From a virus (lineage: Duplodnaviria; Caudoviricetes), in the IMG/VR virus record IMGVR_UViG_3300032799_000186, positions 1-63,662 of that record: DNA of 63,662 nucleotides. One strand, 5' to 3'. The stretch's first letter is position 1. Every line of letters begins with the position of its first letter. Both the position numbers and the translations under genes were made by a program. Positions 2 to 60,003 of the stretch are shown here, piece by piece. The notes beneath the pieces were generated by a model, which saw only the letters and a list, made by a program, of their open reading frames with translations, was not told where the DNA came from and did no database searches.

Positions 2-3000
2 CTCCGAGATCGGAATGTCTGGAATCAGTACCTGGCTCTCCAGAAGAAATTCAAGGCCCGGTTCGATGGGGAGCGCAAGACGTGGTACATCCCCAAAAAC
101 GAGATGCCCTTTTTTGATTTCGATAAGTATCGGTCGGAAATGGAGGCCATTGGTCTGGAGGTTGAGGATCTTCCAGAAAAGCTGATGCGGGTCGCAGATC
201 CCAAGGGTCCATCCGACTCCCCCGGAGAATCCCATGTTCAAACCCACCCGATGACGGTTGAGCAGGCCATCAACGGGATCAAGACTCGCCGGCTCGATAG
301 CACGGTGGTGCTGACCCGTCGGCCGGACGGGGTGTTCGCTTTTTATACCCCCTACACCGACAAGCCGAAGTTTGAAAAAATCCGGGAATTGTTCAGCAAC
401 AAGACTGGGCAGCTCACGGGGATCTCCAAGTTCAACGAATCAGAGCACTCTCGGGACACCCATGAAATAGATTTGGCCGAGGAAGCTCTGGACAAATTGA
501 AGGCCATGTTTCCCGAGTGGGATTTCATCGTCGAGGGGCTTCGGGAAGGCCGTATCGAGCGGGATCAGGAGATTGCCGAGTCCCAGCTTCCCATTCCAGA
601 AGTTGCTGCGAAGATCAACCCGAAGTTCAAGTTGCTCCCTTACCAGAACGAAGGGGTTCGTTTCATCGACAAGGGGGAGGGGAACGCCATCATTGGGGAT
701 GAGATGGGTCTGGGTAAGACTCTCCAGGCCTTGGCTTGGGGGGCTATGCGGGGAAAGAAGATCCTGGTAGTTTGCCCGAAGGTGGTACGCCGAAACTGGC
801 TCCACGAAGCTACCAAGTTTTTTCCGGACTACTTCAAGGGCCACGAGTTGATGTCCAAGGATCTGCGGGCGGGCAAAATCCCTGACCTGGCCAACGTCAC
901 CATCGCCACCATAAACTATGAGGCGCTGGACAAGTTCAAAGACGTGATCGAAAAGGCTGGGTTCGATACCCTTGTGATCGATGAAAGCCACCGTGTAAAA
1001 AATCCCAAAGCTAAGCAGACCCAGGCCGTGCTCAAATTGGCCGAAGGGATGAAGCACCACATCCTACTTTCTGGAACGGCCATCAAGAACAAAAAGGAAG
1101 AGCTGTTCACCCAGTTGGCCATCGTGGCTCCGAATCAGTTCTCTCTGGCGAACCTTCGGTTCGGAACCATTGGTGGAGTTTGGCAGGGCATGCGGAAGGT
1201 GTACCTGGCCCGGCAGAAGAACAAGGTGCTGAAGGATCTGCCCGAAAAGTCCACTACCCAGGTGAGGGTCGATGTGCCGAACGCTCCCGACCTCACGGGC
1301 ATGTCCAGCATCGGGGACGTGTCCAAGATTCGGGGGCAAGTTGCTCTGGCCAAGGTGCCGGCCACCGCAGAGATGGTCAACGAGATTTTGGCATCTTCCG
1401 ATTCCAAGATCCTGGTGTTCACGGAGTCGGTGGCAGCGGCCAAGAGTTTGGCGGAGAAGTTTGGGGACAAGGCCATTCTCCATGGGGGCTGGGTGAGGGA
1501 TGAGGCCCGGGAAATATCCGTAGAAGAGTGGCAGCACAAGGATGAGCAGGGTAATTTCACGAGCCCCAAGCGGGTGTTCGTTACCACCCGGCCCTCTATG
1601 GCCGTGGGGGCGACCCTGACGGCAGCCGACAAGGTGGTGTTCAACGATCTGCCTTGGACGGCAGCGGACGTGCGCCAGGCCGAAGATAGGGCTCACCGAA
1701 TTGGCCAGAAGAAAAACGTCAACGTCTACTGGATTCAGGCGGATGGGAACGCCTTCGATGAGTCGGTGGCCACCATCTTGTTCCGGAAATACGAGCTGGG
1801 GCAGAAGGTCAACCAGGGCAAGCAACTCACCCCACAGGAGCGGGAGTGGATGGAAGCTGACATGACCGATGCGGAGGTCCTGGCTCACATCCGGGGGGCG
1901 TCAGCCGGCCCCCAGGCAATCGAGTCCACCTCCCCCCCGGTTACCCCCTTGACCAAGGCAACCCCCTTGAAGAAGTCTATGACCATGGCTGAGCGGGAAG
2001 ATCGGAAACAGGTAGCTCGGGAGCAGGAAGAGAAGGGTGACTTGCGGGTGGCGGCCACCTTGCCGTTGCTGGCCCACGCCGGAGACAACCCCAAGGAGCT
2101 GGAGAAGCGGGTGCGCGGCCAGCTCCACAAGTTGCGGGTCCGGAACGATTGGCGGACGGAACTTCTGGAATCGATCATGGGCGACCTGGCGGCGTTCAGG
2201 TACGCTCAGGACTCAGGCGAGATGAATGACCTGCCCATGTACCTGCACGAGCACCTGGTCACCGGTGGGGATCGGGCGGAAAAGTCTCTGGGGTCGATGT
2301 GGTCAGATCCGGAGTTCTCGGAGAGCGTTCCAGAAATGCCCTTCGATGAGACTGATGCCCTCTTGAAGTCCGAAGGCTGGATCCCCCTGGACGAAGAACT
2401 GGGGGACATTCTCTGGAAGTCCGAGCGCCCCCACAAGTACATCCGGCGGGTGCCCTACACCGACAACTTGGGGGTGCATAAGTATCGGTATTATTACAGG
2501 GAAAGCGCATCGGCCCGGGGTGCCCGTGCCGGCGAAGAGGTTACCCTGGGAGAGCACACGGCGCACATCAAGCACGTGGACGAAAGCGGTGCCGTGACCA
2601 TGGAGATCGGGGGAGAGGAAAAAACGGTCAACCACAACGAGTGGCACCAGATGATGGCCCACCACTACGGCGAGGGCTACTACCAGCACGTTGAGCACCG
2701 AGCCATTCAAGCCGTCAACGCGGTCCTTCGGAACGTCCCAGGGGACCTTCTGGAAGAGTTGAAGGGCGACGACTCGGCTCGGATGAACGTGCTGAAAACC
2801 CGGGTGCCAGAGGTCTACGCCAAACTCCAGGCGGCCTTCCAGCGGGTAGGGGTGGATGCCTTCCAGGCCAAGCAGATCATCGGGCACACCATGGAGCGCC
2901 GGGGCTGGGAAGCCGAGGCGCGGGCGGCGGTCATCGGGGCGGTGCTCTCCCCAGAAGGCGCCACGATAGCCAAGAACCACAGGCAGATTGTCGCAGGCGC

Positions 3001-6000
3001 TGAGAACCTGGCCGGCGGGATGAAGGTGGAAGCCAAGCACGTGGCGGCGGCCATCGACCTGCGGCGCCCCAGGTTTGAGGGGGACAACTTTGGCCTGAAG
3101 GTGACGGACATCGCCAAAAAGGCCGAGACCGAGCTGACCAAGCTCCAGCATCTTTTGCACGCGGCCAAGACCGAGGGTGGGACCCACGAGGCCCTGATGG
3201 CGCAGGCCCTGGCGTTTACCTCCACGACTTTGACCCAGCTCAACATGCTGGCGACGGCTTACCCGGGCATGCGGGACAAGCTGCTCGACCCGATGCGCCG
3301 GACGATGATGGAAGTGCCATCCATGGCTCCCAGGTCGGAGCCTACGGCCGAGGGGTCGGTGGCGACCTTGTTCGTGGCCGGTGAAGGTGGGAAGCCCCGG
3401 GCGCTGAAGGCGCGGTATCGGTTGATGGAAGCCAAGGATGTGATTCCCTCCCACGACCCAGAGTCTTTCCAGCCCAACGAGAAGTACCCAACGGGGGTTC
3501 AGGAGCGGGCCTATCACCGGGACAAGGATGAGCAGCAAAAGGTGATTCGGAACGCTACCCGGATGAACGCGGCTTTCCTGATCAACACCAACCCGGACGC
3601 CGTGAACGGCCCGCCCATTGTGACCTCGGACGGGGTGGTCTTGGGTGGTAACAGCCGCACCATGTCGATGCAAAGGGCGTTCAAGACCCAGCCCGACCAG
3701 GCCAAGACCCTGAAGGACTACTTGCGGGATCATGCCTCCGAAGTGGGGCTGACGGCCTACGACGTGGACGCCATGGAGAGCCCGATCTTGGTTCGGATGG
3801 TGGACCTGGAGGACAAGACTCCGAAGGCTTTGCGGACCATGGTCCGGCAGATGAATGAGAACTTTACCCAGGCTTTGGACCCCCGGACTTACCAGGTGGC
3901 GCTCGGGCGCCGGCTGGATACCGAGGCCCTGAATGCCTTGTCAAGCAACATGGTCGAGGATGAGAGCTTGAACGATTTCTTGGCTACCGGGCGGTCCAAG
4001 GTTTTCGTGGATCACCTGTCCAGGGTGGGGGTCATCGACGAGCGGAACAGTAACCAGTACATCAAAAAGGGCACCCGGCAGTTGAACGAAGATGGCAAGG
4101 TTCTGGTGTCCAGAATCTTGGTGGGCAACGTGGTGGACGATGCGGACGTGCTGTCCGACACCCCGCCGAAGTTGTTGACCAGCTTGGCCGGTTGTGTGCC
4201 GTACATGCTCCAGGCCAAGTCCTCTGGACCGGAGTTTGACCTGTCCAACGACCTCCAGACGGCTCTCCATGCCTACAATTATGCGAGGGATATGGCGGAC
4301 GCGGGGAAGGGTCCAGTCCTGGACGCCAACATGCCCGACTGGAGTTTCAATCAGCTATTCGCCCAGCAAAACGTGTTCGGTGAGATTCACCCGGTCACCA
4401 AGAGCGAGCGGGCGATGATCTTGCTGGAGTCCATGATCCGGAAGTCTGGCCCCAGGCAGATGACCCGGATCTTCCGGGAGTACACTAAGGCGGCGTCGTT
4501 GAATCGAACGGATCAGATGTCTCTGGCTGGGCCGGCATTGACCCCCGCGCAGGTGCTGACGTTCTCCATCGAGGCGGCCGGGAAGCGGGACAAGGCCGAG
4601 GCTGAAGCTAAGGCCCAGGCCAAGGCAAAGGCTAAAGCCGGAACAGAGCAGGAAGGATTGTTCAAGGCCCAGCCACAGGCCGGGCCGTTTATCGGACCCA
4701 AGGGTGGGAAGTACGCGGATCCCGAGTTGACCATTTCTTGGCGAGAGCGCACCGGGCGCCAGCCGGCAGCTCAGAAACCGATCCCGACACCTCGGGCACC
4801 GGCGGGTTCTCAGCCTCCAGCCAAGCAACCGATAACGGATGCGCCGGCGGAGGTTCACCAGCAGTACCAGCGGGAGGAAGCGAAAACTCGGGGGGGCCAG
4901 CAAGCGACCGAGAAGCCAAAGACCAAGCGGAACTGGGTAGATCACAAGCCGGGTTTGCCCAAGCAGACCATCGACAAGTACCGGATGGATGAGCCCGATG
5001 GGACGCATTCCTACGTGATGTCTCGGAAGCCGATTCACGACAAGATCCTAGAAGCGTTCATGGGTGGGAAACAACCGGTTCCCAAGGATCGGAAAAAAAC
5101 TGCTTTCGTGATGATGGGTGGACCGGCCAGCGGCAAAACTACTTTGGCAAAACTAATCGCCGGGAAGAAGTTTGGGAAGTTCATAAACGTCAACCCGGAC
5201 GATGTTCGGGAGATGCTGCCTGAATACCAGGAAGCCATTGACTTCAAGGACGATAGTGGCAAGCAGGTTTCGGCTAAGGACGCATCTGCCATGACCCACG
5301 AAGAGGCGTCCGACATCGCAGGTGAAGTTTACAACCGGGCCATTGATGGGAATTTCAATCTTGTGTTTGACGGTACAGGCAAGAACGTGGACAAGCATCG
5401 TGCTCGGGTGGCGTCTTTGAAGGATCATGGCTACCACGTAGTTTTGCTGATGCCTCACCTGGATCTGGAAACGGCCCTGGTGCGGGCTGGAGATCGAGCG
5501 GAGCACAGGGGGCGCACAGTACCTGAGCCTATGATGCGGGAAGCCTACCCCAAGATGCCTGGAAATTTTGAATCGGTAGCCCGAACGGCCGATGAGTTCC
5601 ACCTCTATCACAGTGGAGGCCCTGTTACCAAGCCCCCACAGATTGTCTGGAGCGGTGGAGAGGGCAAGAAGGATAAGGTTCACCACCCAGAGCTATTCCA
5701 GCAATTCCAGGAAGAGGCCAAGCGGTCTCGGGTACTCCAGGGTCGGAAGGAAAACCAAGTGGATCTGGGGCCACCGAAGGGTCCTGTGTCCAGGCATGAG
5801 GCTGGCCTGTCCTACAAGAACCTGAAAAAATCTGGGCCGGTCAGGAGCAAGCTGCCTCCCTTCATGTCCGGCGATGACATTTTGGCGAGATTGCAAGAAA
5901 CCAGCGTGGCCGATGCTGAGGACGATGAGGTGGATCTGAAGGGGACCAAGAAGGCCATGTTCGACCGGGATGTCGGGGCCGACACCCCCATGGGGGATGA

Positions 6001-7006
6001 TTTTGACCCAGACAACCGGCGGCTGAAGTACGCCAAGGAAAAGCCCACCATGCCGCCGAAGCAACCCCTGTCAAAGGCGGCCGGGCAAGGCCCCTTTATT
6101 GGCCCCAAGGGCGGGAAGTGGGCCAATCCAGAAATGACCATTCCTTGGGAGGAAGGCACAGGCCAGGGGCGGCCTCCGGCGGCCCAGGAGCAACCCTCTG
6201 CACCTAGACCCCCGGCTCAGCCCCAGCCACAGGCAGCAGGTAACCTGGCCCCCCAGACCCCGGCCCAGGCCCAGGCGCACCAGGCTACGGGGGATTTGGT
6301 TCCTTCTGCCCAAGGCCAGGCCCAGCAAGAAAAGCCAGCTCAGCCCCAGTCGGGGCACTCCGAGCCCAGTGAGGCGGAGATGCTCCAGCGCCTGGACGGT
6401 CAACTTCCAGGGGGCAAGACGACCCAGGAGCACTTCCAGATTGCCAAGGATTTTCTGGCTCAGCACAGGGCGGCGTTCGGGGCAACGATGAAAGCCATGC
6501 AGAACCTGGCCGGTGAGACGGGGGAGGTGTCGGCGCGGGTCAAAGACTTAGGCAGCGCCCTGAACAAGCTCGTAAGAAAACCCAAGTACGGAACGGCGGA
6601 CAAGCTCCAGGATGGGATGGGCGCTAGAATCCAGCACCAAACCGTCTCTCAGGTATGGGAGACGGTGAAGAAGGCCAAGTCCCAGTTCAAAGTGGTGACT
6701 GAGGATAACTACCTCGACACGCCCCTGGGGGACTATCGAAGCTACCACCTGATTCTGGAAGGCCCCACCGGGCTCCAGTTCGAGTTGCAGGTCCGTACCC
6801 ACAACCAGAACATCTTCGGGGACTGGGCGCACAAGGGCTACAAGCCCGAGACTGCGGAGCAGGAGAAGTACAAAGATCACCCAGACGTGAAGCGGTACTC
6901 CAAAGAGATGTCCGAGTATTTCTGGGAGGTAGACAACGAGCAAACACCCAAGTTCACCCCCGAATGCCCTCCGGTGGTTCAACAGGTCTTTGGGTGCATG
7001 GCGTAG
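2..7006 (+). CDS. Giant polyvalent protein, 5'-truncated: SNF2-family helicase/ATPase, DdrB-like ParB domain, zeta-toxin-like P-loop kinase, RelA/SpoT-type synthetase
   Basis: The frame is open from nt 2 (LRDRNVW...RFDGERKTWYIP), so the start is probably upstream. SNF2 motifs LLPYQ, GDEMGLGKT, DESH, LSGTAIKN, QAEDRAHRIGQ (~630-1740). DdrB-ParB-like ARYRLMEA..IPSHDP..QERAY..GPPIV..GGNSRT (~3400-3870). Zeta-like MGGPASGKT..INVNPDD..FDGTG (~5100-5610). Synthetase motifs RVK, QDGMGARI, YRSYH, ELQVRT (~6530-6840). Confidence 0.88.
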   Translation, partial: LRDRNVWNQYLALQKKFKARFDGERKTWYIPKNEMPFFDFDKYRSEMEAIGLEVEDLPEKLMRVADPKGPSDSPGESHVQTHPMTVEQAINGIKTRRLDSTVVLTRRPDGVFAFYTPYTDKPKFEKIRELFSNKTGQLTGISKFNESEHSRDTHEIDLAEEALDKLKAMFPEWDFIVEGLREGRIERDQEIAESQLPIPEVAAKINPKFKLLPYQNEGVRFIDKGEGNAIIGDEMGLGKTLQALAWGAMRGKKILVVCPKVVRRNWLHEATKFFPDYFKGHELMSKDLRAGKIPDLANVTIATINYEALDKFKDVIEKAGFDTLVIDESHRVKNPKAKQTQAVLKLAEGMKHHILLSGTAIKNKKEELFTQLAIVAPNQFSLANLRFGTIGGVWQGMRKVYLARQKNKVLKDLPEKSTTQVRVDVPNAPDLTGMSSIGDVSKIRGQVALAKVPATAEMVNEILASSDSKILVFTESVAAAKSLAEKFGDKAILHGGWVRDEAREISVEEWQHKDEQGNFTSPKRVFVTTRPSMAVGATLTAADKVVFNDLPWTAADVRQAEDRAHRIGQKKNVNVYWIQADGNAFDESVATILFRKYELGQKVNQGKQLTPQEREWMEADMTDAEVLAHIRGASAGPQAIESTSPPVTPLTKATPLKKSMTMAEREDRKQVAREQEEKGDLRVAATLPLLAHAGDNPKELEKRVRGQLHKLRVRNDWRTELLESIMGDLAAFRYAQDSGEMNDLPMYLHEHLVTGGDRAEKSLGSMWSDPEFSESVPEMPFDETDALLKSEGWIPLDEELGDILWKSERPHKYIRRVPYTDNLGVHKYRYYYRESASARGARAGEEVTLGEHTAHIKHVDESGAVTMEIGGEEKTVNHNEWHQMMAHHYGEGYYQHVEHRAIQAVNAVLRNVPGDLLEELKGDDSARMNVLKTRVPEVYAKLQAAFQRVGVDAFQAKQIIGHTMERRGWEAEARAAVIGAVLSPEGATIAKNHRQIVAGAENLAGGMKVEAKHVAAAIDLRRPRFEGDNFGLKVTDIAKKAETELTKLQHLLHAAKTEGGTHEALMAQALAFTSTTLTQLNMLATAYPGMRDKLLDPMRRTMMEVPSMAPRSEPTAEGSVATLFVAGEGGKPRALKARYRLMEAKDVIPSHDPESFQPNEKYPTGVQERAYHRDKDEQQKVIRNATRMNAAFLINTNPDAVNGPPIVTSDGVVLGGNSRTMSMQRAFKTQPDQAKTLKDYLRDHASEVGLTAYDVDAMESPILVRMVDLEDKTPKALRTMVRQMNENFTQALDPRTYQVALGRRLDTEALNALSSNMVEDESLNDFLATGRSKVFVDHLSRVGVIDERNSNQYIKKGTRQLNEDGKVLVSRILVGNVVDDADVLSDTPPKLLTSLAGCVPYMLQAKSSGPEFDLSNDLQTALHAYNYARDMADAGKGPVLDANMPDWSFNQLFAQQNVFGEIHPVTKSERAMILLESMIRKSGPRQMTRIFREYTKAASLNRTDQMSLAGPALTPAQVLTFSIEAAGKRDKAEAEAKAQAKAKAKAGTEQEGLFKAQPQAGPFIGPKGGKYADPELTISWRERTGRQPAAQKPIPTPRAPAGSQPPAKQPITDAPAEVHQQYQREEAKTRGGQQATEKPKTKRNWVDHKPGLPKQTIDKYRMDEPDGTHSYVMSRKPIHDKILEAFMGGKQPVPKDRKKTAFVMMGGPASGKTTLAKLIAGKKFGKFINVNPDDVREMLPEYQEAIDFKDDSGKQVSAKDASAMTHEEASDIAGEVYNRAIDGNFNLVFDGTGKNVDKHRARVASLKDHGYHVVLLMPHLDLETALVRAGDRAEHRGRTVPEPMMREAYPKMPGNFESVARTADEFHLYHSGGPVTKPPQIVWSGGEGKKDKVHHPELFQQFQEEAKRSRVLQGRKENQVDLGPPKGPVSRHEAGLSYKNLKKSGPVRSKLPPFMSGDDILARLQETSVADAEDDEVDLKGTKKAMFDRDVGADTPMGDDFDPDNRRLKYAKEKPTMPPKQPLSKAAGQGPFIGPKGGKWANPEMTIPWEEGTGQGRPPAAQEQPSAPRPPAQPQPQAAGNLAPQTPAQAQAHQATGDLVPSAQGQAQQEKPAQPQSGHSEPSEAEMLQRLDGQLPGGKTTQEHFQIAKDFLAQHRAAFGATMKAMQNLAGETGEVSARVKDLGSALNKLVRKPKYGTADKLQDGMGARIQHQTVSQVWETVKKAKSQFKVVTEDNYLDTPLGDYRSYHLILEGPTGLQFELQVRTHNQNIFGDWAHKGYKPETAEQEKYKDHPDVKRYSKEMSEYFWEVDNEQTPKFTPECPPVVQQVFGCMA
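4682..4741 (+). repeat. 20-aa tag copy 1 (GPFIGPKGGKYADPELTISW)
   Basis: Read directly. Preceded by LFKA (4658-4669) and followed by a P/Q/A-rich linker and the zeta-like domain. Confidence 0.95.
6089..6148 (+). repeat. 20-aa tag copy 2 (GPFIGPKGGKWANPEMTIPW)
   Basis: Preceded by LSKA (6068-6079) and followed by a P/Q/A-rich linker and the RelA/SpoT domain. Confidence 0.95.
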
Positions 7007-52404: not shown

Positions 52405-52749
52405 ATGAAAGGTGCAATGGGTCTGAAGATGTCGAACGAAGAGATCGATGAGTACATGAGTGGTTTGATCACGGCCAAGGAGTCCACGCTGGAGGGGCTG
52501 GAGGCCGAGTGCCTGGACCGCTGGAAAGCCCTGACCGCTGACATCTCGAAAGCGTCCGAAGAACTGACTCGGGCTCGGGGGCTGATCGAACGGTTGCAGG
52601 CAGGTGTCCAGGACATGCACGGCCAGCGGAAGGCTCACGTCCAGCTCCTCATCGCGGCCGAGGAAAGCCGGCGGAACGCAAAGAACCCCAACCTGGAAGT
52701 CGTGAAGGACTTGCCCAAGGGCGAGACCAAGGTGGCTTCCGAGAAATGA
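52405..52749 (+). CDS. Hypothetical coiled-coil protein (possible fibre chaperone)
   Basis: GAGGAG SD. Follows the fibre gene. Confidence 0.55.
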   Translation: MKGAMGLKMSNEEIDEYMSGLITAKESTLEGLEAECLDRWKALTADISKASEELTRARGLIERLQAGVQDMHGQRKAHVQLLIAAEESRRNAKNPNLEVVKDLPKGETKVASEK

Positions 52750-53114
52750 GGCGGGTCATGGCAAAGGTGTGGCTCTGGGTAAAGAACTATCTCTGGAAGT
52801 TCGTTGGCGGCTTGTTCATGGAGGACCGAGCGGGCACTTCGGTCATCTCCCTGGGACGGGTCTTGTTGCTGGCTGTGTTCGTTACCATGATCACCTTCTG
52901 GCACAAGGAACGGCCCGAGCTGCCTGGTGGGCTCATGGAAGCGTTCTATGCCCTCTTGGGCTACGTGTTCGGCAGCAAGGCTGTAGGAACTGCCAGGGAG
53001 TGGCTCGGCAACGGCAAGGGTATTGGCTTAGACGGTATCCCGATCAATCAAGCACCCAGCGGTGCCCGTGAGTCTGGGGCGCCCGAGACCCCACCCCCGG
53101 GGGCCAAGCCGTGA
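52746..53114 (+). CDS. Holin-like membrane protein
   Basis: Two hydrophobic helices (SLGRVLLLAVF.., FYALLGYVFGSK). ATGA overlap. Confidence 0.6.
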   Translation: MRRVMAKVWLWVKNYLWKFVGGLFMEDRAGTSVISLGRVLLLAVFVTMITFWHKERPELPGGLMEAFYALLGYVFGSKAVGTAREWLGNGKGIGLDGIPINQAPSGARESGAPETPPPGAKP

Positions 53115-53452
53115 CCAAGGTCAAGGCGTTCTGGACTTGGACCAAGCAAAACTGGAAGATCCCGGTCATCATCGTGGGGATCATCCTGGGGTGGTTGCTG
53201 TTCCGAAGCCGGCGGGAGAAGGGGACCCCGCTCGCCCAGACCAAGGTCGAGCTTCAAGCTCTGGAAGCGGCCGGCCAGGCCCGAGCCAAGGAAGCGGAAC
53301 TGGGGGCGGCCCAGGCGCGGGCTTGGGTGGAGGTTCGGTACCAGGTCGAGTTGAAGGCCCTGGATAACAAGAAGGCAGCCCAGGCAAAGGAACTCCGCGA
53401 TGACCCAGCTAAATTGGCGGCTTTTCTGGTCCGTGCTGGTTCTGGTCAGTAG
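53111..53452 (+). CDS. Inner-membrane spanin-like (Rz-like) protein
   Basis: N-terminal transmembrane segment then an Ala/Glu/Lys coiled coil. Overlaps the next gene. Confidence 0.55.
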   Translation: MTKVKAFWTWTKQNWKIPVIIVGIILGWLLFRSRREKGTPLAQTKVELQALEAAGQARAKEAELGAAQARAWVEVRYQVELKALDNKKAAQAKELRDDPAKLAAFLVRAGSGQ

Positions 53453-53876
53453 CCTGACACTCTGGGGAGCCCCAGGAAGGGCCGGGGATACTACCCCCGT
53501 CTGTTCTCCCGGAGACCCCACCCGATGTGCCCAGCCCCTGTCCCTTGGCCAGCCAGCCCCATTCCCAGGGCAACTGCTCAGCCCGACCTTGGCGTTGGAC
53601 CTGGGGCAGAAGGCCAGTTTCTGCGATGAGCGGTTGGATCTGGAGCTGAAGCACGTCAAGGCCGAGGCCAGCATCGACCTGACTCTGGAAAAGCAGCTCC
53701 GGGGAAACGACAAGATCACCTGGGATGCCGAGAAGGCGCTGCTCCTGGATCGCCTGGCCGAAGCCAAAAAGCCGCCCCCCTGGTACACCCATCCAGCTTT
53801 TATTGTCACGATGAGCGTCCTCGCAACTATCGGGTTATCTTACGGAATGTTCGAGTTGGCTACCCGAATCAAGTAG
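53400..53876 (+). CDS. Exported membrane protein, possible second spanin component
   Basis: Signal-peptide-like N-terminus, Cys residues, coiled coil, PPPWY and a C-terminal hydrophobic helix. Confidence 0.5.
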   Translation: MTQLNWRLFWSVLVLVSSLTLWGAPGRAGDTTPVCSPGDPTRCAQPLSLGQPAPFPGQLLSPTLALDLGQKASFCDERLDLELKHVKAEASIDLTLEKQLRGNDKITWDAEKALLLDRLAEAKKPPPWYTHPAFIVTMSVLATIGLSYGMFELATRIK

Positions 53877-53885
53877 GACCCCCAA

Positions 53886-53932
53886 AAAAAAGCTGGACCA
53901 ATCTGGTCCAAACGGAGTTATATGGGGTGAGG
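53886..53932 (+). promoter_or_regulatory. 47-bp promoter-like element, copy 1
   Basis: AAAAAAGCTGGACCAA-N9-AACGGAGTTATATGGGGTGAGG, an ungapped match to 55839-55885. Confidence 0.55.
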
Positions 53933-54070: not shown

Positions 54071-54255
54071 ACAACCCACGGTGATCAGATCAGAGATCAT
54101 TTTGATTTTGATCTAGTAATCTATATGAGCTAAAGCACGGGATCAAAAGTCAAGTGGTTGATATTGCAAGAGAAAATGGAAATTGAGAAATGAGTAGAAA
54201 GGCTAGATAAAAGGTTGATTATACAAAGAAATTTGTACTTGAAAATGTGCTAAAA

Positions 54256-55878
54256 ATGGACATAAATTCCAGAGAAAACAAGGTGGAGATCAGCGGGTTT
54301 GGCCCCTTCGGGGCCAACCCGCAGGGCTTCGCCCCACCTGATTCTACTTACCATCTCGGGACTGGGGAAGATGTAGAGTTCCAGGTAGAGAACGGGTGGA
54401 CCCATATCTTGCACGCCCCTCCCTTCCTGCTGAGTGTGTTCGACCAGGAACTTCGCTACCCAACCCAGGTCGCTTTGGCCATGGAAGCCGGCTTCGTCGC
54501 TCAGGACGGGTGGGACGGCTGGATCCGGTTGCTTCGAAAGCCCACCCAGACCAACCCTTCCCCCAGGGTGCCCACAGGATTGCTTTCCGCTTTGATCAGG
54601 TTGTGCGGAAAGTTTGGGTTTACCTACCGGATCCATGATTCCAGAAACAAGCCCGCCGGAGACGTTCCAGAAATGGTGACGATCCCGCTTCGTGACTACC
54701 AGGAAGCGGCAGTCGAGGCGGCCTTGAAAGCAGGCCGTGGGGTTCTGGACATGCCACCCAGGTCTGGAAAGACCAGGACCATGGCTGAGATTCATCGGCG
54801 CCTGGCGCTTCCCACAGCTTGGCTGGCCCCGACAACCCGGATCGTGACTCAAACGGCCGAGGTGCTGGCCGGGTTTTTCGGGGAGAACTATGCTTTCACC
54901 CTGGTGGGATCGAAAGACTGGAAAGCGGCTTCCAGAAAAAAGATCGTGGTTTGCACAGCGGCGACGGCTGGGAACTTGCCGGCCGATTTCTGGAAAAGCC
55001 GGCAAGTGGTGGTGGTCGATGAATGGCATCACGCGGCAGCCAAGACCTACCGGGAAATACTCGATCATTGCGAGCACGTCTACTATAGGTTTGGGATGAC
55101 CGGTACTTTTTACCGCTCGGGCCTGGATGAACTGGCTATGCACGCTCTGCTCTCGAACGCGGTCTACAAGATCACAAGTCGGGAACTGTTGGCTCGGGGG
55201 TTCTTGATCCCGGTGAAGGTGGTGTTTATCCCGGTCCTCGGACACGTGCGGGGGTGCGGAACTGGATTCCAGACGGGACACGGGAAGGCGGGGATCCACG
55301 AGCACACCTACCGCCAGTCGATGGTGGCCCACGTTGCTCACTACCTCCAGAGCACCGGCCGGCGAGTCCTGGTGCTGGTTGGGACCAAGAAACAGGGCCG
55401 GGATCTGGAGACGGTCATCCGAACCCTGGTGCCCCGGGCGCCGGATGGATGCCAGCGCAAGTCGGTGGAGTTCATCTGTCACGACACCCCCAAGACGATC
55501 CAGGGGGAGATTCTGGAATCGTTCGTGGCTGGTCGGGAGGTGAAGGTGCTCATCGGGACCTCAATCGTGGGTGAGGGAGTGGACTTGCCAACGACCGACA
55601 GTTTGGTGTACGCCAAGGGGGAGAAGGCCGAGGTCACCTTGGTGCAGAACGCTTACCGGGTGGCGACGGCGGCCGAGGGAAAGGATTCTGCAATCATCGT
55701 GGACTTCGCTGACCGACACCACCGGAAACTGTTGCAGCACGCCCTGGAGCGGTTGAGAATCTACCACGAGGAACCAAGTTTTGAGGTGAAGGTGCTTCAA
55801 GATCCGCAGGAATTTCCCCAGTGGCTACAGGCGCAGGGAAAAAAGCTGGACCAAAATCTCTGGAACGGGGTTATCTAG
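54256..55878 (+). CDS. Superfamily 2 DNA helicase (UvsW/Rad25-like)
   Basis: LRDYQ, MPPRSGKT, DEWHH, MTGT, GEGVDLP, IVDFAD. The start position is uncertain. Confidence 0.88.
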   Translation: MDINSRENKVEISGFGPFGANPQGFAPPDSTYHLGTGEDVEFQVENGWTHILHAPPFLLSVFDQELRYPTQVALAMEAGFVAQDGWDGWIRLLRKPTQTNPSPRVPTGLLSALIRLCGKFGFTYRIHDSRNKPAGDVPEMVTIPLRDYQEAAVEAALKAGRGVLDMPPRSGKTRTMAEIHRRLALPTAWLAPTTRIVTQTAEVLAGFFGENYAFTLVGSKDWKAASRKKIVVCTAATAGNLPADFWKSRQVVVVDEWHHAAAKTYREILDHCEHVYYRFGMTGTFYRSGLDELAMHALLSNAVYKITSRELLARGFLIPVKVVFIPVLGHVRGCGTGFQTGHGKAGIHEHTYRQSMVAHVAHYLQSTGRRVLVLVGTKKQGRDLETVIRTLVPRAPDGCQRKSVEFICHDTPKTIQGEILESFVAGREVKVLIGTSIVGEGVDLPTTDSLVYAKGEKAEVTLVQNAYRVATAAEGKDSAIIVDFADRHHRKLLQHALERLRIYHEEPSFEVKVLQDPQEFPQWLQAQGKKLDQNLWNGVI

Positions 55879-55885
55879 GTTGAGG
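55839..55885 (+). promoter_or_regulatory. 47-bp promoter-like element, copy 2
   Basis: AAAAAAGCTGGACCAA-N9-AACGGGGTTATCTAGGTTGAGG. Overlaps the helicase stop codon. Confidence 0.55.
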
Positions 55886-56077
55886 CAAACGATAGTCCCC
55901 TTCCGGGTGGCTGGGCGGAGTAACCCCCCCCCCTACTTCGACCGCCCCCGGAAGGGGACCTTGAAATCAAAGGGTTTCCTTGAGGACTTAGCTGTGCTAC
56001 AGAGAAACTTGCTTGCCTTGAGTAGCAGGCGCCACGCCCCGTAGATCAACGTCCCTTGGTCTACGGGGCCTTCTTTT
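55880..56077 (+). ncRNA. Candidate structured non-coding RNA B ending in a terminator
   Basis: 13-bp stem 55895-55907/55947-55959 enclosing inner stems and a C10 loop, further small hairpins, and a terminal terminator hairpin. Confidence 0.5.
56036..56077 (+). terminator. Intrinsic terminator
   Basis: GCCCCGTAGATCAA/CGTCCC/TTGGTCTACGGGGC followed by CTTCTTTT. Confidence 0.7.
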
Positions 56078-56087
56078 GGGAGGATCC

Positions 56088-56495
56088 ATGGCTGACTTGC
56101 TGACCGCCGACGCCAAAAAGATGACTGCCCAGCAACGGAGCGAGGCCATGATGCGGGTGGCCATGCAGAGCCCAGACCACCTGCGACAGTGGCTGGAGGC
56201 GAGCGGCCGGCGCTGGTTGGTGTTCGATGCGTCGGCTTTGGTGGAGTCGCTGCCCTGGCCCGGAGGGGTCGAGGCGTTGACCCAGATCGTGGCGTGCTAT
56301 CGAGACCACCGGTCAGTTCAGCCCAGCGGGAGGACGGAGCCGTTGCAGGATCCCATGACCGGGGAGACCATCAACGTGCCGGTGATGAAGGGTGAGACCC
56401 TGGAAGTCGAGGAGCTGGATCGGGTGATTCGGTACCTCATTGGGCAAGCCACGGAGAGGGATCCGTCATGGAAGCTGGAAAACCCGCCGATGTGA
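56088..56495 (+). CDS. Hypothetical protein
   Basis: GGAGG SD before ATG 56088. Confidence 0.7.
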   Translation: MADLLTADAKKMTAQQRSEAMMRVAMQSPDHLRQWLEASGRRWLVFDASALVESLPWPGGVEALTQIVACYRDHRSVQPSGRTEPLQDPMTGETINVPVMKGETLEVEELDRVIRYLIGQATERDPSWKLENPPM

Positions 56496-56719
56496 GCAAG
56501 GGTAAGTATGGCCCCGAGAGCAGGATGTTCGATGCTCTGAAGGGGGCCGAAGTTCTGATTTCCTGGAATAACGGAGACCCGGGGATGCGTGCTAAGCTGA
56601 TTTGGGTGGACCGTTATACTCTGGGAGTGAAACTTCGGAATGGGTCTATGGCGATGGTCTACAAACTTGCCATCAAGTTCATCGAGGCTGGAGATCAGAA
56701 GGACTCACCTCAACCATGA
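56492..56719 (+). CDS. Hfq/Sm-like small protein
   Basis: EVLISWNNG..MRAKLIWVDRYTLGVK..AMVYKLAIKFIE aligns by eye to Hfq Sm1/Sm2 (VSIYLVNG..GQIESFDQFVILLK..QMVYKHAISTV). GTGA overlap. Confidence 0.7.
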   Translation: MSKGKYGPESRMFDALKGAEVLISWNNGDPGMRAKLIWVDRYTLGVKLRNGSMAMVYKLAIKFIEAGDQKDSPQP

Positions 56720-56734
56720 CCAAAGGGACGAAAC

Positions 56735-57358
56735 ATGCCAATGGCGCAACTGCTGCTCAGGGACTACAGTGACTATTTTCTCCAAACCGCGTACATCAAA
56801 AAGCTGAAAGCCTCCGGTGGGTACATTACCGGGGTCAAGATAACACCAGAGCGGATCCAGGCCATAGAGCGGATGGCGATCTGGTGTCGTGAGCGTCGGC
56901 TGGATCCCAGGCACTGGCTCCAGAGCCTGTTCGAATCCCGCCGATGGATCTTCCCGCCGCAGTGGAACCAGTTGACCTCAGCCAAGCACCTCGCAAAGTA
57001 CCCAACCATCCCCGTGAGCCAACCGTACCAGCAGAAGATGCAGAATGAGCTGTTGGTCGGCCAAACGAGGAGGGGGGCCACGTTCGACGTGAACCGGGAC
57101 CTTTCCCCAGCAACCGAGGCCATCAAGGCCAGGCATCTTTACCACCAGGAGTCTGACCGGTGCCAGGCCGGGATGAAGTCTGAGACCATGGGGTACCACC
57201 CCTTGAGCACTGTTTGCGCCAGGTGCCCCCGGGCGAGAGAGTGCGAGCAGGCGTTGAGGGCGCTGGCGAACTTTGACATTGTGGCCTTGCGCCAGGGGGC
57301 GATCTCTCTGGAGCAGGCAGCGGCGCAGGAGCGCAAACGATTCTATGAACGCCATTGA
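56735..57358 (+). CDS. Hypothetical replication-module protein with C-terminal Cys cluster
   Basis: CARCPRAREC. Directly upstream of and overlapping the helicase. Confidence 0.65.
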   Translation: MPMAQLLLRDYSDYFLQTAYIKKLKASGGYITGVKITPERIQAIERMAIWCRERRLDPRHWLQSLFESRRWIFPPQWNQLTSAKHLAKYPTIPVSQPYQQKMQNELLVGQTRRGATFDVNRDLSPATEAIKARHLYHQESDRCQAGMKSETMGYHPLSTVCARCPRARECEQALRALANFDIVALRQGAISLEQAAAQERKRFYERH

Positions 57359-58781
57359 CCGGCAGCCTGTTGCCAGGCAGCCGGCCAATGTCGAGGCCCA
57401 GCCGAACCTTCCCTTCGGTTCGGACTTCCAGGCTTCGCTGTTGCGGTTGCTGCTAGAGGATTCTGGGTTCGCCCATGCGGTCAGCGAACACCTGAACCCG
57501 TCCTACTTTGAGAGTCCCCCGTTGGCCTGGGCGTGGGCTTTCTGCCAGCGGTATCAATCCCAATACGGCAGCATGCCCACCACCCGGTTGCTGTTCGAGC
57601 AATCCCGGAGCGTGGACCAGCGCATCCGACCCCTTTATACGGCCACCATCGAGGTAGTGGCCGCCGCCAGCCTTCGAGAGGAAAAATGGATCCGTGACCA
57701 GGTGCTGGAGTTCATTCGGAGGAACGTGTTCGTCGCGGCGTTCCGGGACTGCAAGGATCTCTACAACGCCGGCAAGGCCACCGAAGCCTACGATTTGATG
57801 ATGGAGCGGATGGAACGGATCCGGATCACGGTTTTTGAACAGGTGGATCGGGAGTGGGTGTGCGCTGGTTTGCCGGCACGGCAATCGGCTCGGCTGGGGG
57901 TTGACGGGCGGAGCGATACGATCACGACTGGGCTCCGGTCGCTGGACAAGGTTCTGGAGGGTGGGTTGCACCTGGGTGAACTGGGGATCTGGATCGCGGA
58001 GCCCAAGACCGGCAAAACCACGATGCTGGTGAACCATGGGATTGCCGGCGCCCGGCTGGCCTTCAAAAACGTCCTGCATTGCGTGTTCGAGGGGTCCAGG
58101 AAACAGGTCGTGAATCGGTATGACGCGGCTTTCAGCGAAGAACTTTACAGTCGGGTGAAGGCCGGCGAGATGGGGGACAAGAAGTACGAGGTCTTGCTGG
58201 CTGAGTACAAGATGCTGTCTAGCAAGCTGGTGGTCCGAGCCTTCACCGAGCGGTGGGATTATTCGGTGGTCGATGTCCACGAGGAAATTCGCACGCTCAA
58301 GCGGGAGCACGGCTGGGAGCCCCAGCTTGTTGTCGTGGACTACGGGGACCTGCTGCGCGGCCGGGAGAAGCACTACAACAGCGAGACCGAAAAGCAGCGG
58401 GCGGCTTATCGGGATCTGAAGTCCCTGGCTAACAGGGGGTATGCGGTCTGGAGCGCCACCCAGAGCAAGCGGCCGAAGGAAGGGGATGAGAACAAGCCCC
58501 GGTGGCTCAGGAGCCGGGACGTGGCGGACTGCTACGACAAAATTCGGGTGTCGGATTTTGGGGGTAGCATCAACCTGACCCTGGAGGAAAAGAACCTGGG
58601 ACTGGCCCGGTTGCTGTTTGAATACTACCGGGATAACGAGGCTGAGAATAGCGTCGTGGTTCGAGCTGACTTTTCGCGGATGCTGATCAAAGAGGAGTTG
58701 GGGTTGACCAGCCCGGCGGTGCCCGGGATGGAATCGAGTAAACTAGGCCAGCTTCCCAGACAGGCACTGGCCCCAATATGA
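57345..58781 (+). CDS. Replicative DnaB/T4 gp41-like helicase
   Basis: AGGAG upstream of ATG 57345. TGLRSLD..GG..GEL, AEPKTGKTT, VVVDYGDLL, WSATQ. Confidence 0.9.
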   Translation: MNAIDRQPVARQPANVEAQPNLPFGSDFQASLLRLLLEDSGFAHAVSEHLNPSYFESPPLAWAWAFCQRYQSQYGSMPTTRLLFEQSRSVDQRIRPLYTATIEVVAAASLREEKWIRDQVLEFIRRNVFVAAFRDCKDLYNAGKATEAYDLMMERMERIRITVFEQVDREWVCAGLPARQSARLGVDGRSDTITTGLRSLDKVLEGGLHLGELGIWIAEPKTGKTTMLVNHGIAGARLAFKNVLHCVFEGSRKQVVNRYDAAFSEELYSRVKAGEMGDKKYEVLLAEYKMLSSKLVVRAFTERWDYSVVDVHEEIRTLKREHGWEPQLVVVDYGDLLRGREKHYNSETEKQRAAYRDLKSLANRGYAVWSATQSKRPKEGDENKPRWLRSRDVADCYDKIRVSDFGGSINLTLEEKNLGLARLLFEYYRDNEAENSVVVRADFSRMLIKEELGLTSPAVPGMESSKLGQLPRQALAPI

Positions 58782-58978
58782 GGGAGGATGCAATGACCCT
58801 GGTCGAGATCGACGCCGAAATTCGTCGCCTGCAAGCGGAGCGGGATCTGATGCGTGAGGCCATTTGGGCGCGGCAGCAACAAGAGTTCGAACGGGAACGC
58901 CAGGAGCGGATGCAGTTGCGGATCGCGGCGGAGACTGGGGGTCGAAACGAACCGGAACCGGAGGGACTGCGGGTGTGA
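58778..58978 (+). CDS. Small coiled-coil hypothetical protein
   Basis: Overlaps both neighbours by 4 nt. An alternative start at 58793 has a GGAGG SD. Confidence 0.55.
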   Translation: MREDAMTLVEIDAEIRRLQAERDLMREAIWARQQQEFERERQERMQLRIAAETGGRNEPEPEGLRV

Positions 58979-60003
58979 ACCCCCTCATCACCCGAGCCAT
59001 CGAGCTGTTCGACCTGTTGGGCTACGTGATCGATCACGGGGGTGAGGAAGCCCAGGTCAACCAGTGGGCGCTGGTGTGCCCAACTTGTGGAAAAAAGAAA
59101 CTGGTGGTGGATCTCGGGCGGCGGGCTTGGCATTGCTGGGTGTGTGAGCAGTACGGGGCAGCGGATGCCCGCACTGGGAAGCGCCAGGTACTCCAGGGCG
59201 CCGGCGGGCTCATCGACCTGGTGCAATTTCTGGAGGGATGGGATCGAAAACGGGCGGCTGAGTTTGTGCTGGCTCAGACCAATCTCCAGCCCCCAAATCT
59301 GGGGCATATCGACGGGGATCTCCGGGCCAGCGTGGCGAAGGAGCTAGATGGGCTGAGAACATTGCCACAACTTTCTTGCCCAGAATGCACGAAAAAGATT
59401 GACGGCGCTATGCCGTATATGGTACAACGAGGGATAAGCATGGAGGACGTTCGGATGTTCGGTCTGTTTTATTGCGACGGAGGGCGTTACCGGGGAAGGC
59501 TGATCTTCCCGGTGTACGAGGACGGCCGGTTGGTCTACTTCCAGGGCCGGGCGATGTGGGAGTCGAAAGAGCCTGGATTTTTGAAGTCGTTGAACCCGGT
59601 GCGAGAAGAGGGCGCGGGGGTGAGCAGTGAGGTGTTGTTCAACTTGGATCAGGCGCGGTTCGCCGCGAGAGTGGCCATCACCGAAGGCCCCATCGACGCG
59701 GTTCACGTTGGGCCGGATGCGGTTTGTACCTTCGGGAAGAAAATCTCCGCGACCCAGATCGCCAAGATGCTGCGGGCTGGGGTCAAGGCGGTGGATTTGA
59801 TCTGGGATGGCCCGAGTGAGCGGGAGCCCCAGGGCGCCTGGCCGGAGATGTTTGCGGTAGCCCCGACGCTGGCCACGCTGTTCGACACCAGGCTGGTGTT
59901 TGTGCCTCAGAAGGATCCGGGGAGCTGGTCTCGGGCTGAGAACGCTTTTTTCAGGACACAGGGGCGTCCTGTGTCCTCTTTCGCCCAAGTGGCCCGACTC
60001 TAG
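58975..60003 (+). CDS. DNA primase (Zn finger + TOPRIM)
   Basis: CPTC..WHCWVC, RLIFP..YFQGR, LFN, ITEGPIDA, IWD. GTG start overlaps the upstream stop. Confidence 0.88.
   Translation: MNPLITRAIELFDLLGYVIDHGGEEAQVNQWALVCPTCGKKKLVVDLGRRAWHCWVCEQYGAADARTGKRQVLQGAGGLIDLVQFLEGWDRKRAAEFVLAQTNLQPPNLGHIDGDLRASVAKELDGLRTLPQLSCPECTKKIDGAMPYMVQRGISMEDVRMFGLFYCDGGRYRGRLIFPVYEDGRLVYFQGRAMWESKEPGFLKSLNPVREEGAGVSSEVLFNLDQARFAARVAITEGPIDAVHVGPDAVCTFGKKISATQIAKMLRAGVKAVDLIWDGPSEREPQGAWPEMFAVAPTLATLFDTRLVFVPQKDPGSWSRAENAFFRTQGRPVSSFAQVARL

Follow-up and report, generated by a model that had tools for sequence, protein, structure and literature searches.

Hfq is a central RNA chaperone of bacteria, and to our knowledge virus-encoded Hfq proteins are essentially undescribed. 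Does the virus record studied here (IMG/VR IMGVR_UViG_3300032799_000186, 63,662 bases, called the window throughout, with an estimated completeness of 59%) encode one, and does that protein act on the structured RNA that lies upstream of its gene? An original prediction, made from the sequence alone, had proposed a riboregulation module at positions 55880-56719, in which a small RNA (sRNA) with a poly-C loop is served by a phage chaperone. We find that the protein is a real, diverged member of the Hfq family. The reading that we prefer, and hold with about even confidence, is that its gene is an optional member of a replication cassette, and that the non-coding stretch is a cis-acting 5′ leader of this cassette and not a free sRNA. 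Full-text searches, as far as their listings and abstract openings show, brought up no description of an Hfq that is encoded by a phage or placed in a phage replication module.

The features on which the argument turns are these, with lengths in nucleotides (nt), base pairs (bp) or amino acids (aa) and with SD for Shine-Dalgarno sequence:

56468..56719, + strand: gene for the Hfq-like (Sm-fold) protein, 83 aa; overlaps the preceding open reading frame (ORF), ORF135, by 28 nt and has its own SD, GAGAGGGA
55879..56087, + strand: structured non-coding leader, 209 nt, between the stop codon of a helicase gene and ATG 56088
56036..56069, + strand: terminator-type hairpin with a 14-bp stem and the loop CGTCCC, GTCCC lying at 56051-56055
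56070..56087, + strand: U tract CTTCTTTT (56070-56077), SD GGGAGG (56078-56083) and spacer, then ATG 56088

A diverged Hfq-family protein

The product of ORF 56468-56719 is a genuine, diverged Hfq-family protein that retains the core pocket and has altered RNA faces. The motif MVYKLAI, which had first drawn attention to it, occupies residues 63-69; the protein itself is longer than predicted, 83 aa instead of about 75. The start at ATG 56468 is supported by relatives, because the N-terminus ME-x-x-K is common to them. Three close clusters, its own included, were present among 5.8 billion, and exhaustive searching of 1.84 billion representatives yielded 47 matches at E <= 1e-3. Five giant proteins (P0004, P0009, P0017, P0024 and P0027) had no family-profile match, P0009 consisting of unrelated repeats, and were rejected as spurious, while P0003 was left out as its C-terminus diverges after residue 58. 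The resulting family alignment of 44 rows holds 41 representatives, the window protein, its counterpart in the closest relative (L001) and P0002; the metagenome scan for relatives used a 12-row alignment.

The family as a whole is recognised by Hfq profiles. Pfam Hfq is matched by 28 of the 44 members at E <= 0.1 (best 6.5e-8), Hfq_1 by 23, TIGR02383 by 18 and the cyanobacterial Hfq-related model NF047718 by 12. On its own the window protein scores 13.8 bits against PF17209 (E = 0.044), below the curated cut-off of 27, and matches no NCBIfam model. Searched against the Protein Data Bank (PDB), the family profile found the Hfq-like protein of Methanocaldococcus jannaschii (5dy9, 7.4e-7) and Caulobacter Hfq (6gwk, 4.1e-5), and hhalign aligned it to E. 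coli Hfq over 65 columns with 93% probability (E 3.4e-7). No PHROG family contains the protein, none of 50,697 isolate phages encodes it by tblastn at E <= 1, and a search of genome contigs gave no cellular relative.

In Hfq, Lys56 and His57 line the proximal uridine pocket, Gln8 and an aromatic residue at position 42 belong to the proximal face, Tyr25 serves the distal face that binds A-rich RNA, and R16, R17 and R19 make up the rim. The phage family has the consensus GPESxFxDxLKG ... LLWVDRYTxG ... YKxAI. The position of Phe42 is aromatic in 44/44 members (Y/F50, Y in 39 and F in 5), Lys56 (K66) is likewise kept in all 44, and Asp40 is invariant. The position of Gln8 is Glu throughout (44/44), and that of distal Tyr25 is variable, with V, E, W, S and others. 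His57 is retained in 16/44; the change to Leu in YKLAI, which the original prediction had pointed out, is real and peculiar to the window protein. The rim carries K25 (K or R in 42/44), G26 (40/44) and a variable position 28, one basic residue in place of three. The N-terminal tails are basic, with a net charge of at least +3 in 26 of the 44 members.

Modelling agrees with the profiles, and the predicted Sm fold held up. The AlphaFold2 model (predicted local distance difference test, pLDDT, 79) has one helix (16-24) and five strands (28-33, 40-47, 51-55, 61-65 and 69-74). In a Foldseek search of the PDB all 11 matches at E <= 0.001 were Hfq chains, with template-modelling (TM) scores of 0.75-0.87 normalised by target, and the model superposes on 1kq2_H with a root-mean-square deviation of 1.1 Å over 62 columns at an identity to Hfq chains of about 20%. 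Its viral structure matches are uncharacterised proteins. Docking of four copies gave an ipSAE of 0.47, while none of three controls came above 0.00, and the runs agreed in at least 86% of contacts with a partner pLDDT of at least 71; the calibration mark is one that 20 of 30 solved pairs and one of 23 single chains reach, counts that hold roughly here. The predicted interface joins strand 5 (residues 69-72) to strand 4 (62-65), the classical Sm edge, and Glu17 touches residues 48-51 and 63 of the adjacent copy. The protein probably forms a ring, as judged from a four-copy model whose pass in docking may reflect a resemblance to Hfq rings of solved structure.

An optional member of a replication cassette

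Relatives of the locus, given L numbers here, were fetched via the small Hfq-like protein, ORF207 and the DnaB-type helicase. Across 43-65% G+C they keep the order helicase, ORF135, Hfq-like gene, ORF207, DnaB, primase. The Hfq-like gene is present in 20 of 29 distinct cassettes and missing from nine. Wherever it is present (20/20) it lies between ORF135 and ORF207, just before DnaB and primase, and the only other placement seen is one distant C-terminal fusion (L019). Eight of the nine cassettes that lack it have ORF135 and ORF207 spaced 18-138 nt apart, or overlapping (L039). In the ninth, L043, an unrelated ORF of 90 aa (3162-3434) fills the slot, and the leader hairpin has the loop GUCCC.

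On a DnaB tree of 32 cassettes the presence of the gene changes eight times, and at least six of these changes are forced by well-supported branches. The tree omits duplicates, contig pieces without DnaB (L011, L012 and L024) and the distant or partial loci L055, L057 and L058. By its distribution and gene order, then, the Hfq-like gene is an optional member of a conserved replication cassette. We also considered an obligate complex of ORF135 with the Hfq-like protein and rejected it, since each gene exists without the other: L009 and L013 have no ORF135, and nine cassettes have no Hfq-like gene.

One relative is unusual in several respects. In L017 the Hfq-like protein (3432-3737) has an N-terminal extension that contains CPQC, and several extra genes lie between the helicase and the cassette. 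The L017 helicase ORF (192-1241) carries a sequence that we take to be intein-like (...CTEVYDLEVEDNHNYFAEGVLVSNS...).

A conserved hairpin at the 3′ end of the leader

The non-coding region, predicted at about 200 nt, measures 209 nt and ends, as proposed, in a terminator-like structure: a hairpin of 14 pairs followed by CTTCTTTT, a tail that runs into the SD of the next gene. One of the 14 pairs is G-U, and the folding free energy is -24.4 kcal/mol on the + strand and -21.2 kcal/mol on the reverse complement. The U tract is weaker than a textbook tail because it is interrupted (CUUCUUUU). There is no second hairpin of this kind within the 63.7-kb window, and this one is therefore not the phage's general terminator. 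From the comparison of relatives, this hairpin is the key RNA feature of the leader, and not the C10 loop that the original prediction had emphasised.

Relatives show the identical order of hairpin, T-rich tract, GGAG-type SD and start codon. Eleven distinct loci share a perfect stem of 9-15 bp, GTCCC in the loop and a T-rich tail, a combination matched once in 3300 dinucleotide shuffles, and the outer halves of their stems are merely 44% identical. Across cassettes the structure is a covarying stem of 9-17 bp with a C-rich loop and a U tract. For the 29 distinct cassettes with enough upstream sequence, a terminator-type hairpin with CCC in its loop stands ahead of the gene that follows the helicase in 15 of the 20 that have the Hfq-like gene and in eight of the nine that do not; the hairpin is independent of the gene. 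L045 was scored positive only with the two top stem pairs open, and L009 and L023 were counted with one ORF, small in L009, between the hairpin and the cassette genes. The hairpin is missing from L017, L042, L047, L050 and L052, which have the Hfq-like gene, and from L039, which lacks it. In seven cassettes without the gene the loop reads ATCCCC, TACCC, TTCCC, GCCC or GACCCC.

The 23 hairpins have a median free energy of -24.9 kcal/mol and are followed by 4-9 T in the next 10 nt. G-U accounts for 26 of their 285 stem pairs, which would be A-C mismatches on the opposite strand, and 20 of the 23 have the lower folding energy on the + strand. Both observations indicate that the structure is selected in the transcript and not as a symmetric DNA cruciform. 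These counts come from stem-anchored scripts. MAFFT alignments of the hairpins did not respect the structure and were set aside, and a covariance model built from two hairpins, which regained nine of 11, missed L008 and L013 and gave reverse-strand or spurious matches, was not used for counts.

In the window the hairpin ends 18 nt ahead of ATG 56088. The distance from hairpin to first in-frame start is 5-57 nt (median 21) in 20 cassettes, and that to an SD-preceded start is 17-31 nt in 18 of the 20, the exceptions being L037 (45 nt) and L013 (57 nt). No promoter would fit into a gap this short, and every mRNA of ORF135 and the genes downstream must therefore carry the hairpin in its leader. 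L008 has two extra genes between helicase and hairpin, one of them divergent with a good ribosome-binding site, and a promoter-like match, TTGACG-17-TAGGAT, 18 nt upstream of the hairpin. In L008, therefore, the hairpin is part of the 5′ leader of the downstream cassette and does not close the helicase gene. L013 and L009 are without ORF135, and there the hairpin stands before the Hfq-like gene, either immediately or with a 31-codon ORF between them. We recognised no antiterminator pairing that is conserved. A pseudoknot between loop and SD, with 4 bp in the window and 3 bp in L001, was discarded as not conserved. The L008 divergent gene itself lies at 4124-4423 on the minus strand and encodes 99 aa behind a strong ribosome-binding site; its insertion gives this cassette a putative promoter region of its own.

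The 5′ part of the leader

The rest of the leader is structured in the window and far less widely shared. It contains two further elements:

55895..55959, + strand: 5′ hairpin with a perfect 13-bp basal stem (arms 55895-55907 and 55947-55959, 100% complementary) and a C10 apical loop
56011..56030, + strand: predicted small hairpin GCTTGC / GCAGGC with loop CTTGAGTA (alignment columns 133-152)

A 215-nt stretch that includes the leader folds at -99 kcal/mol, compared with -75.6 +/- 4.9 kcal/mol for 200 dinucleotide shuffles, none of which was equally stable (z = -4.77). The whole leader is common to the window and its closest relative L001 only. Their alignment contains indels of 6 and 1 nt that disrupt any reading frame, which rules out a coding role for the leader ORF 55880-56044. 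Rfam has no family for the leader; its best match, mraW RNA, reached 22.2 bits where the gathering score is 50 (E = 0.28), and we took this sub-threshold match as chance. No iterons or origin-like repeat array were found in the leader, nor an AT-rich unwinding element nearby. A sigma-70-like promoter was also absent from 55879-56035, a weak negative as the host's promoter type may differ. The sequencing runs listed as containing the stretch were three of DNA and none of RNA.

The C10 hairpin is present as predicted, with the C run at 55924-55933. In L001 its stem is preserved through two both-side and two one-side changes, and the loop is C6 (L001 3904-3911); in a near-identical contig of run X1 the C run is 3 nt shorter (C7). 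Close variants have C10, C7 or C6, a difference in length due to slippage at a homopolymer in this non-coding loop or to assembly. Beyond these closest relatives (the window, L001 and the one X1 contig) the C-rich 5′ hairpin is absent, and distant relatives have other 5′ hairpins with no rule of a C-rich loop. The sequence TTGAGTAGCAGGC of the small hairpin is common to the window, L001 and L011 only, and the small hairpin has no covariation evidence because its stem never varies.

What the leader and the protein may do

The presence of the hairpin in eight of the nine cassettes that lack the Hfq-like gene is the reason why we read the leader as cis-acting, an attenuator or an operator, and not as an Hfq-dependent sRNA. 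The arrangement has what an attenuator has, a GC-rich stem-loop and U tract on the transcribed strand with no room for a promoter downstream of the hairpin. RNA polymerase would have to read through the terminator-type hairpin to express the cassette, and the hairpin would set the amount of the replication cassette that is made, as an attenuator or as a translational operator. The latter, as an alternative or an addition, is suggested by the U tract and hairpin lying right against the ribosome-binding site. The original prediction had offered as its fallback a terminator attenuating the helicase-primase genes, and on the comparative evidence this fits better than its sRNA module. If a factor binds at the hairpin and U tract beside the ribosome-binding site and tunes expression, the best candidate we have is the Hfq-like ring, which would act as a modulator and not as an obligatory partner. 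We infer termination or read-through, the binding of any protein and the direction of regulation.

Several observations weigh against this picture. Cassettes that lack the Hfq-like gene have the hairpin as often as those that carry it, and five of the 20 cassettes with the gene show no CCC-loop hairpin. Most of the canonical RNA-contact residues of Hfq (Q8, His57, Tyr25 and two rim arginines) are missing. The invariant loop implies a sequence-specific partner, and its conserved sequence is not accounted for. Neither does the exact loop follow the gene without exception, L043 having GUCCC without the gene and L036 the gene with an ACCCC loop.

The closest tie between protein and hairpin would be a self-contained ribonucleoprotein (RNP) switch, in which the phage Hfq-family ring recognises the GUCCC hairpin and its U tract and controls read-through and translation of its own gene and of those for ORF135, the DnaB-type helicase and the primase. 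Hfq and Sm rings do bind hairpins followed by U tracts, and the E. coli protein acts on the leader of its own mRNA to repress it. The exact GUCCC loop occurs in 13 of 20 cassettes with the gene and in one of nine without it (L043). In independent pairs, GUCCC and the gene went the same way in 3 and the other way in 0.5 (p about 0.25), an association that cannot reach significance because only four independent pairs exist. The corresponding test for presence of any hairpin gave 0.5 the same way and 0.6 the other way; independent pairs show no link, and a functional tie between protein and hairpin is thus without comparative support. We regard the switch as a doubtful, though attractive, proposal. 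If true, this would be the first case of a viral Hfq that has its own cis target, and the tracking of GUCCC with the gene would be its footprint.

Several other explanations deserve comparison with the preferred one of an optional Hfq-family gene behind a cis-acting leader. The original sRNA module would need a discrete small RNA, a leader or a helicase 3′ untranslated region (UTR), ending at 56036-56069, with the phage Hfq ring binding its hairpin and U tail while C10 and GUCCC pair in trans with G-rich ribosome-binding sites. A structured body, a GC-rich terminator hairpin and a U tract would suit an Hfq-binding RNA, staphylococcal sRNAs have C-rich loops that target SD sequences, and here two C-rich loops lie in one RNA, the apical one persisting as C10, C7 and C6 and GUCCC being invariant in 13 cassettes with the Hfq-like gene. 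However, the non-coding stretch of the window has no promoter-like site, the hairpin abuts the SD of the next gene and hence is part of its mRNA, the window U tail is interrupted, and His57, which in Hfq contacts RNA 3′ ends, is not conserved. Co-occurrence of RNA and gene also fails in relatives, where the CCC-loop hairpin occurs in all but one of the cassettes without the gene and the C10-type hairpin is missing beyond the closest relatives. We consider the module as originally stated improbable. Poisoning of the host's Hfq by a mimic that co-assembles into its hexamers, also raised originally, draws on the kept Sm fold, the predicted Sm-type subunit interface and the loss of several RNA-face residues. 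Mixed rings are unlikely at about 20% identity to Hfq chains, and the gene has its fixed place in a replication cassette and not among early host-takeover genes, so that this idea seems to us very remote.

A role for the ring in DNA replication itself, with the hairpin as a separate expression signal, is a minority view that we take more seriously, though it too is on balance unlikely. The ring might load or regulate DnaB, act on RNA primers or R-loops, or coat single-stranded DNA (ssDNA). This would suit the fixed place of the gene between ORF135 and ORF207 in 20/20 cassettes, the lack of any other placement bar the L019 fusion, the poorly kept canonical RNA-face residues and the basic N-terminal tails; E. 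coli Hfq has also been discussed as a DNA-binding protein (PMC12029325). Against it, the gene is dispensable, with at least six gains or losses among the 32 rows of the tree; ORF135 and ORF207 close up or overlap in cassettes without it; and the best-kept residues, the aromatic and the lysine of the proximal pocket (Y/F50 and K66, both 44/44), are RNA-binding ones in Hfq. Finally, the hairpin might act as ssDNA, as an origin or a priming signal whose loop presents a primase site (GTC/CCC). It lies inside a replication module, its loop sequence is conserved on a stable stem, the phage has a T7/DnaG-type primase, and T7-type primases recognise 5′-GTC-3′. But on the coding strand a T tract stands 3′ of every stem, with an SD and a start codon behind it, the G-U wobble pairs favour a + strand RNA, GTC is lost from the loops of seven cassettes without the gene, and iterons and an AT-rich unwinding element are absent nearby. 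A role as DNA is in our judgement hardly credible.

The replication block and its surroundings

Every gene-like ORF of the window is on the + strand, and PHROG matches to a major head protein, a protease, a tail sheath and baseplate proteins mark it as a contractile-tailed phage. An isolate-phage search found no isolate-phage record similar to the region at the DNA level. The block runs superfamily-2 helicase, non-coding stretch, ORF135, Hfq-like ORF, ORF207, DnaB-type helicase, primase, and upstream of it lie small ORFs without a family match (52405-53876) and then a 370-nt gap. Its other genes are:

54247..55878, + strand: superfamily-2 helicase gene, 543 aa (Pfam ResIII 3.3e-20, DEAD and Helicase_C; PHROG 16 'DNA helicase' 1.1e-59)
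56088..56495, + strand: ORF135, 135 aa, a protein without known family (8-sequence alignment, 40-71% identity to the window protein)
56735..57358, + strand: ORF207, a cysteine-rich conserved protein (14-sequence alignment), directly 5′ of the DnaB-type helicase
57273..58781, + strand: DnaB-type replicative helicase gene (Pfam DnaB_C 6.8e-15; PHROG 19 1.7e-42), given as the longest ORF, its true start being perhaps further downstream
58864..60003, + strand: DnaG/T7-type primase gene (PHROG 47 'DNA primase' 3.1e-35; Pfam DNAG_N 2.5e-4, under the curated cut-off)

The superfamily-2 helicase, whose stop codon TAG is at 55876-55878, is the first gene of the block and the upstream neighbour of the leader. 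ORF135 is usually the first gene behind the leader hairpin. At E <= 0.1 it had no Pfam match and only a weak PHROG one (E 0.015), no PDB match was found at E <= 10, and no ESM Atlas match reached 0.9. ORF207 matched no Pfam family. Five cysteines (C51, C143, C161, C164 and C170) are invariant in its alignment of 14 sequences, which also shows the motif GYHPxSxVCxxCP; the protein may bind zinc and load or regulate the helicase. In relatives its gene is without exception the immediate upstream neighbour of the DnaB-type helicase gene.

An exact 16-nt direct repeat, AAAAAAGCTGGACCAA, flanks the superfamily-2 helicase gene (53886-53901 and 55839-55854, 1953 nt apart). Its first copy overlaps a minus-strand terminator-like hairpin with a T8 tail, though all genes are on the + strand. 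Elsewhere in the window ORF 104-7006, of at least 2300 aa and open at the 5′ end of the contig, has a helicase-like region (PHROG 62, 5.9e-74) and also matches ATPase and polynucleotide-kinase-like families.

Related systems and significance

The nearest relatives in kind are the bacterial Hfq proteins (PF17209, TIGR02383; E. coli, S. aureus 1kq1/1kq2, Listeria 4nl3, Caulobacter 6gwk). The phage protein shares with them the Sm fold with its N-terminal helix and five bent strands, a Sm2-like Y-K-x-A-I with invariant Lys, the aromatic residue at F42, the Asp at D40 and a predicted subunit interface between strands 4 and 5. It differs in its profile score of less than the curated cut-off, in Glu for Gln8 and, in the window protein, Leu for His57, in the loss of distal Tyr25 and of two of the three rim arginines, and in its extra basic N-terminal tail, conserved GPES and invariant W-V-D; its gene, moreover, sits in a replication cassette.

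M. jannaschii MJ1435 (2qtx, 5dy9) is the best profile match in the PDB and is matched near full length, residues 7-73 of the query to 6-70 of the chain (E = 7.4e-7). Unlike the phage protein it is a cellular archaeal protein, with the motif FKHAI, and as a structural match (rank 30, TM 0.57 normalised by query) it is weaker than bacterial Hfq chains. The cyanobacterial Hfq-related proteins (NF047718; Synechocystis 3hfo, Anabaena 3hfn) are similar in being diverged Hfqs with altered RNA-contact residues. The model matches 3hfo with a TM score of 0.87 normalised by target, and 12/44 members match the cyanobacterial profile. These proteins are encoded by cellular genes in another context, and the window protein itself shows no close kinship to them.

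Control through a leader is familiar from the E. coli hfq 5′ UTR, the translational operators of T4 genes 32 and 43, and lambda tR1 with N antitermination. The phage leader resembles these in that a hairpin whose loop is conserved, together with a U-rich tract, stands immediately 5′ of the ribosome-binding site of a replication block, and in that the terminator must be read through. Its loop motif, GUCCC or NCCC, matches none of them.

The leader hairpin is in itself a new and well-supported RNA motif, with a covarying stem and a C-rich loop in 23 cassettes and no match in Rfam. A compact, expressible protein of 83 aa adjoins a short conserved RNA hairpin. An interaction of the two would mean that phages bring their own Sm-type post-transcriptional control of replication gene dosage. 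Without one, the constant location of an Sm ring next to DnaB and primase would point to a DNA-side role of the Hfq fold.

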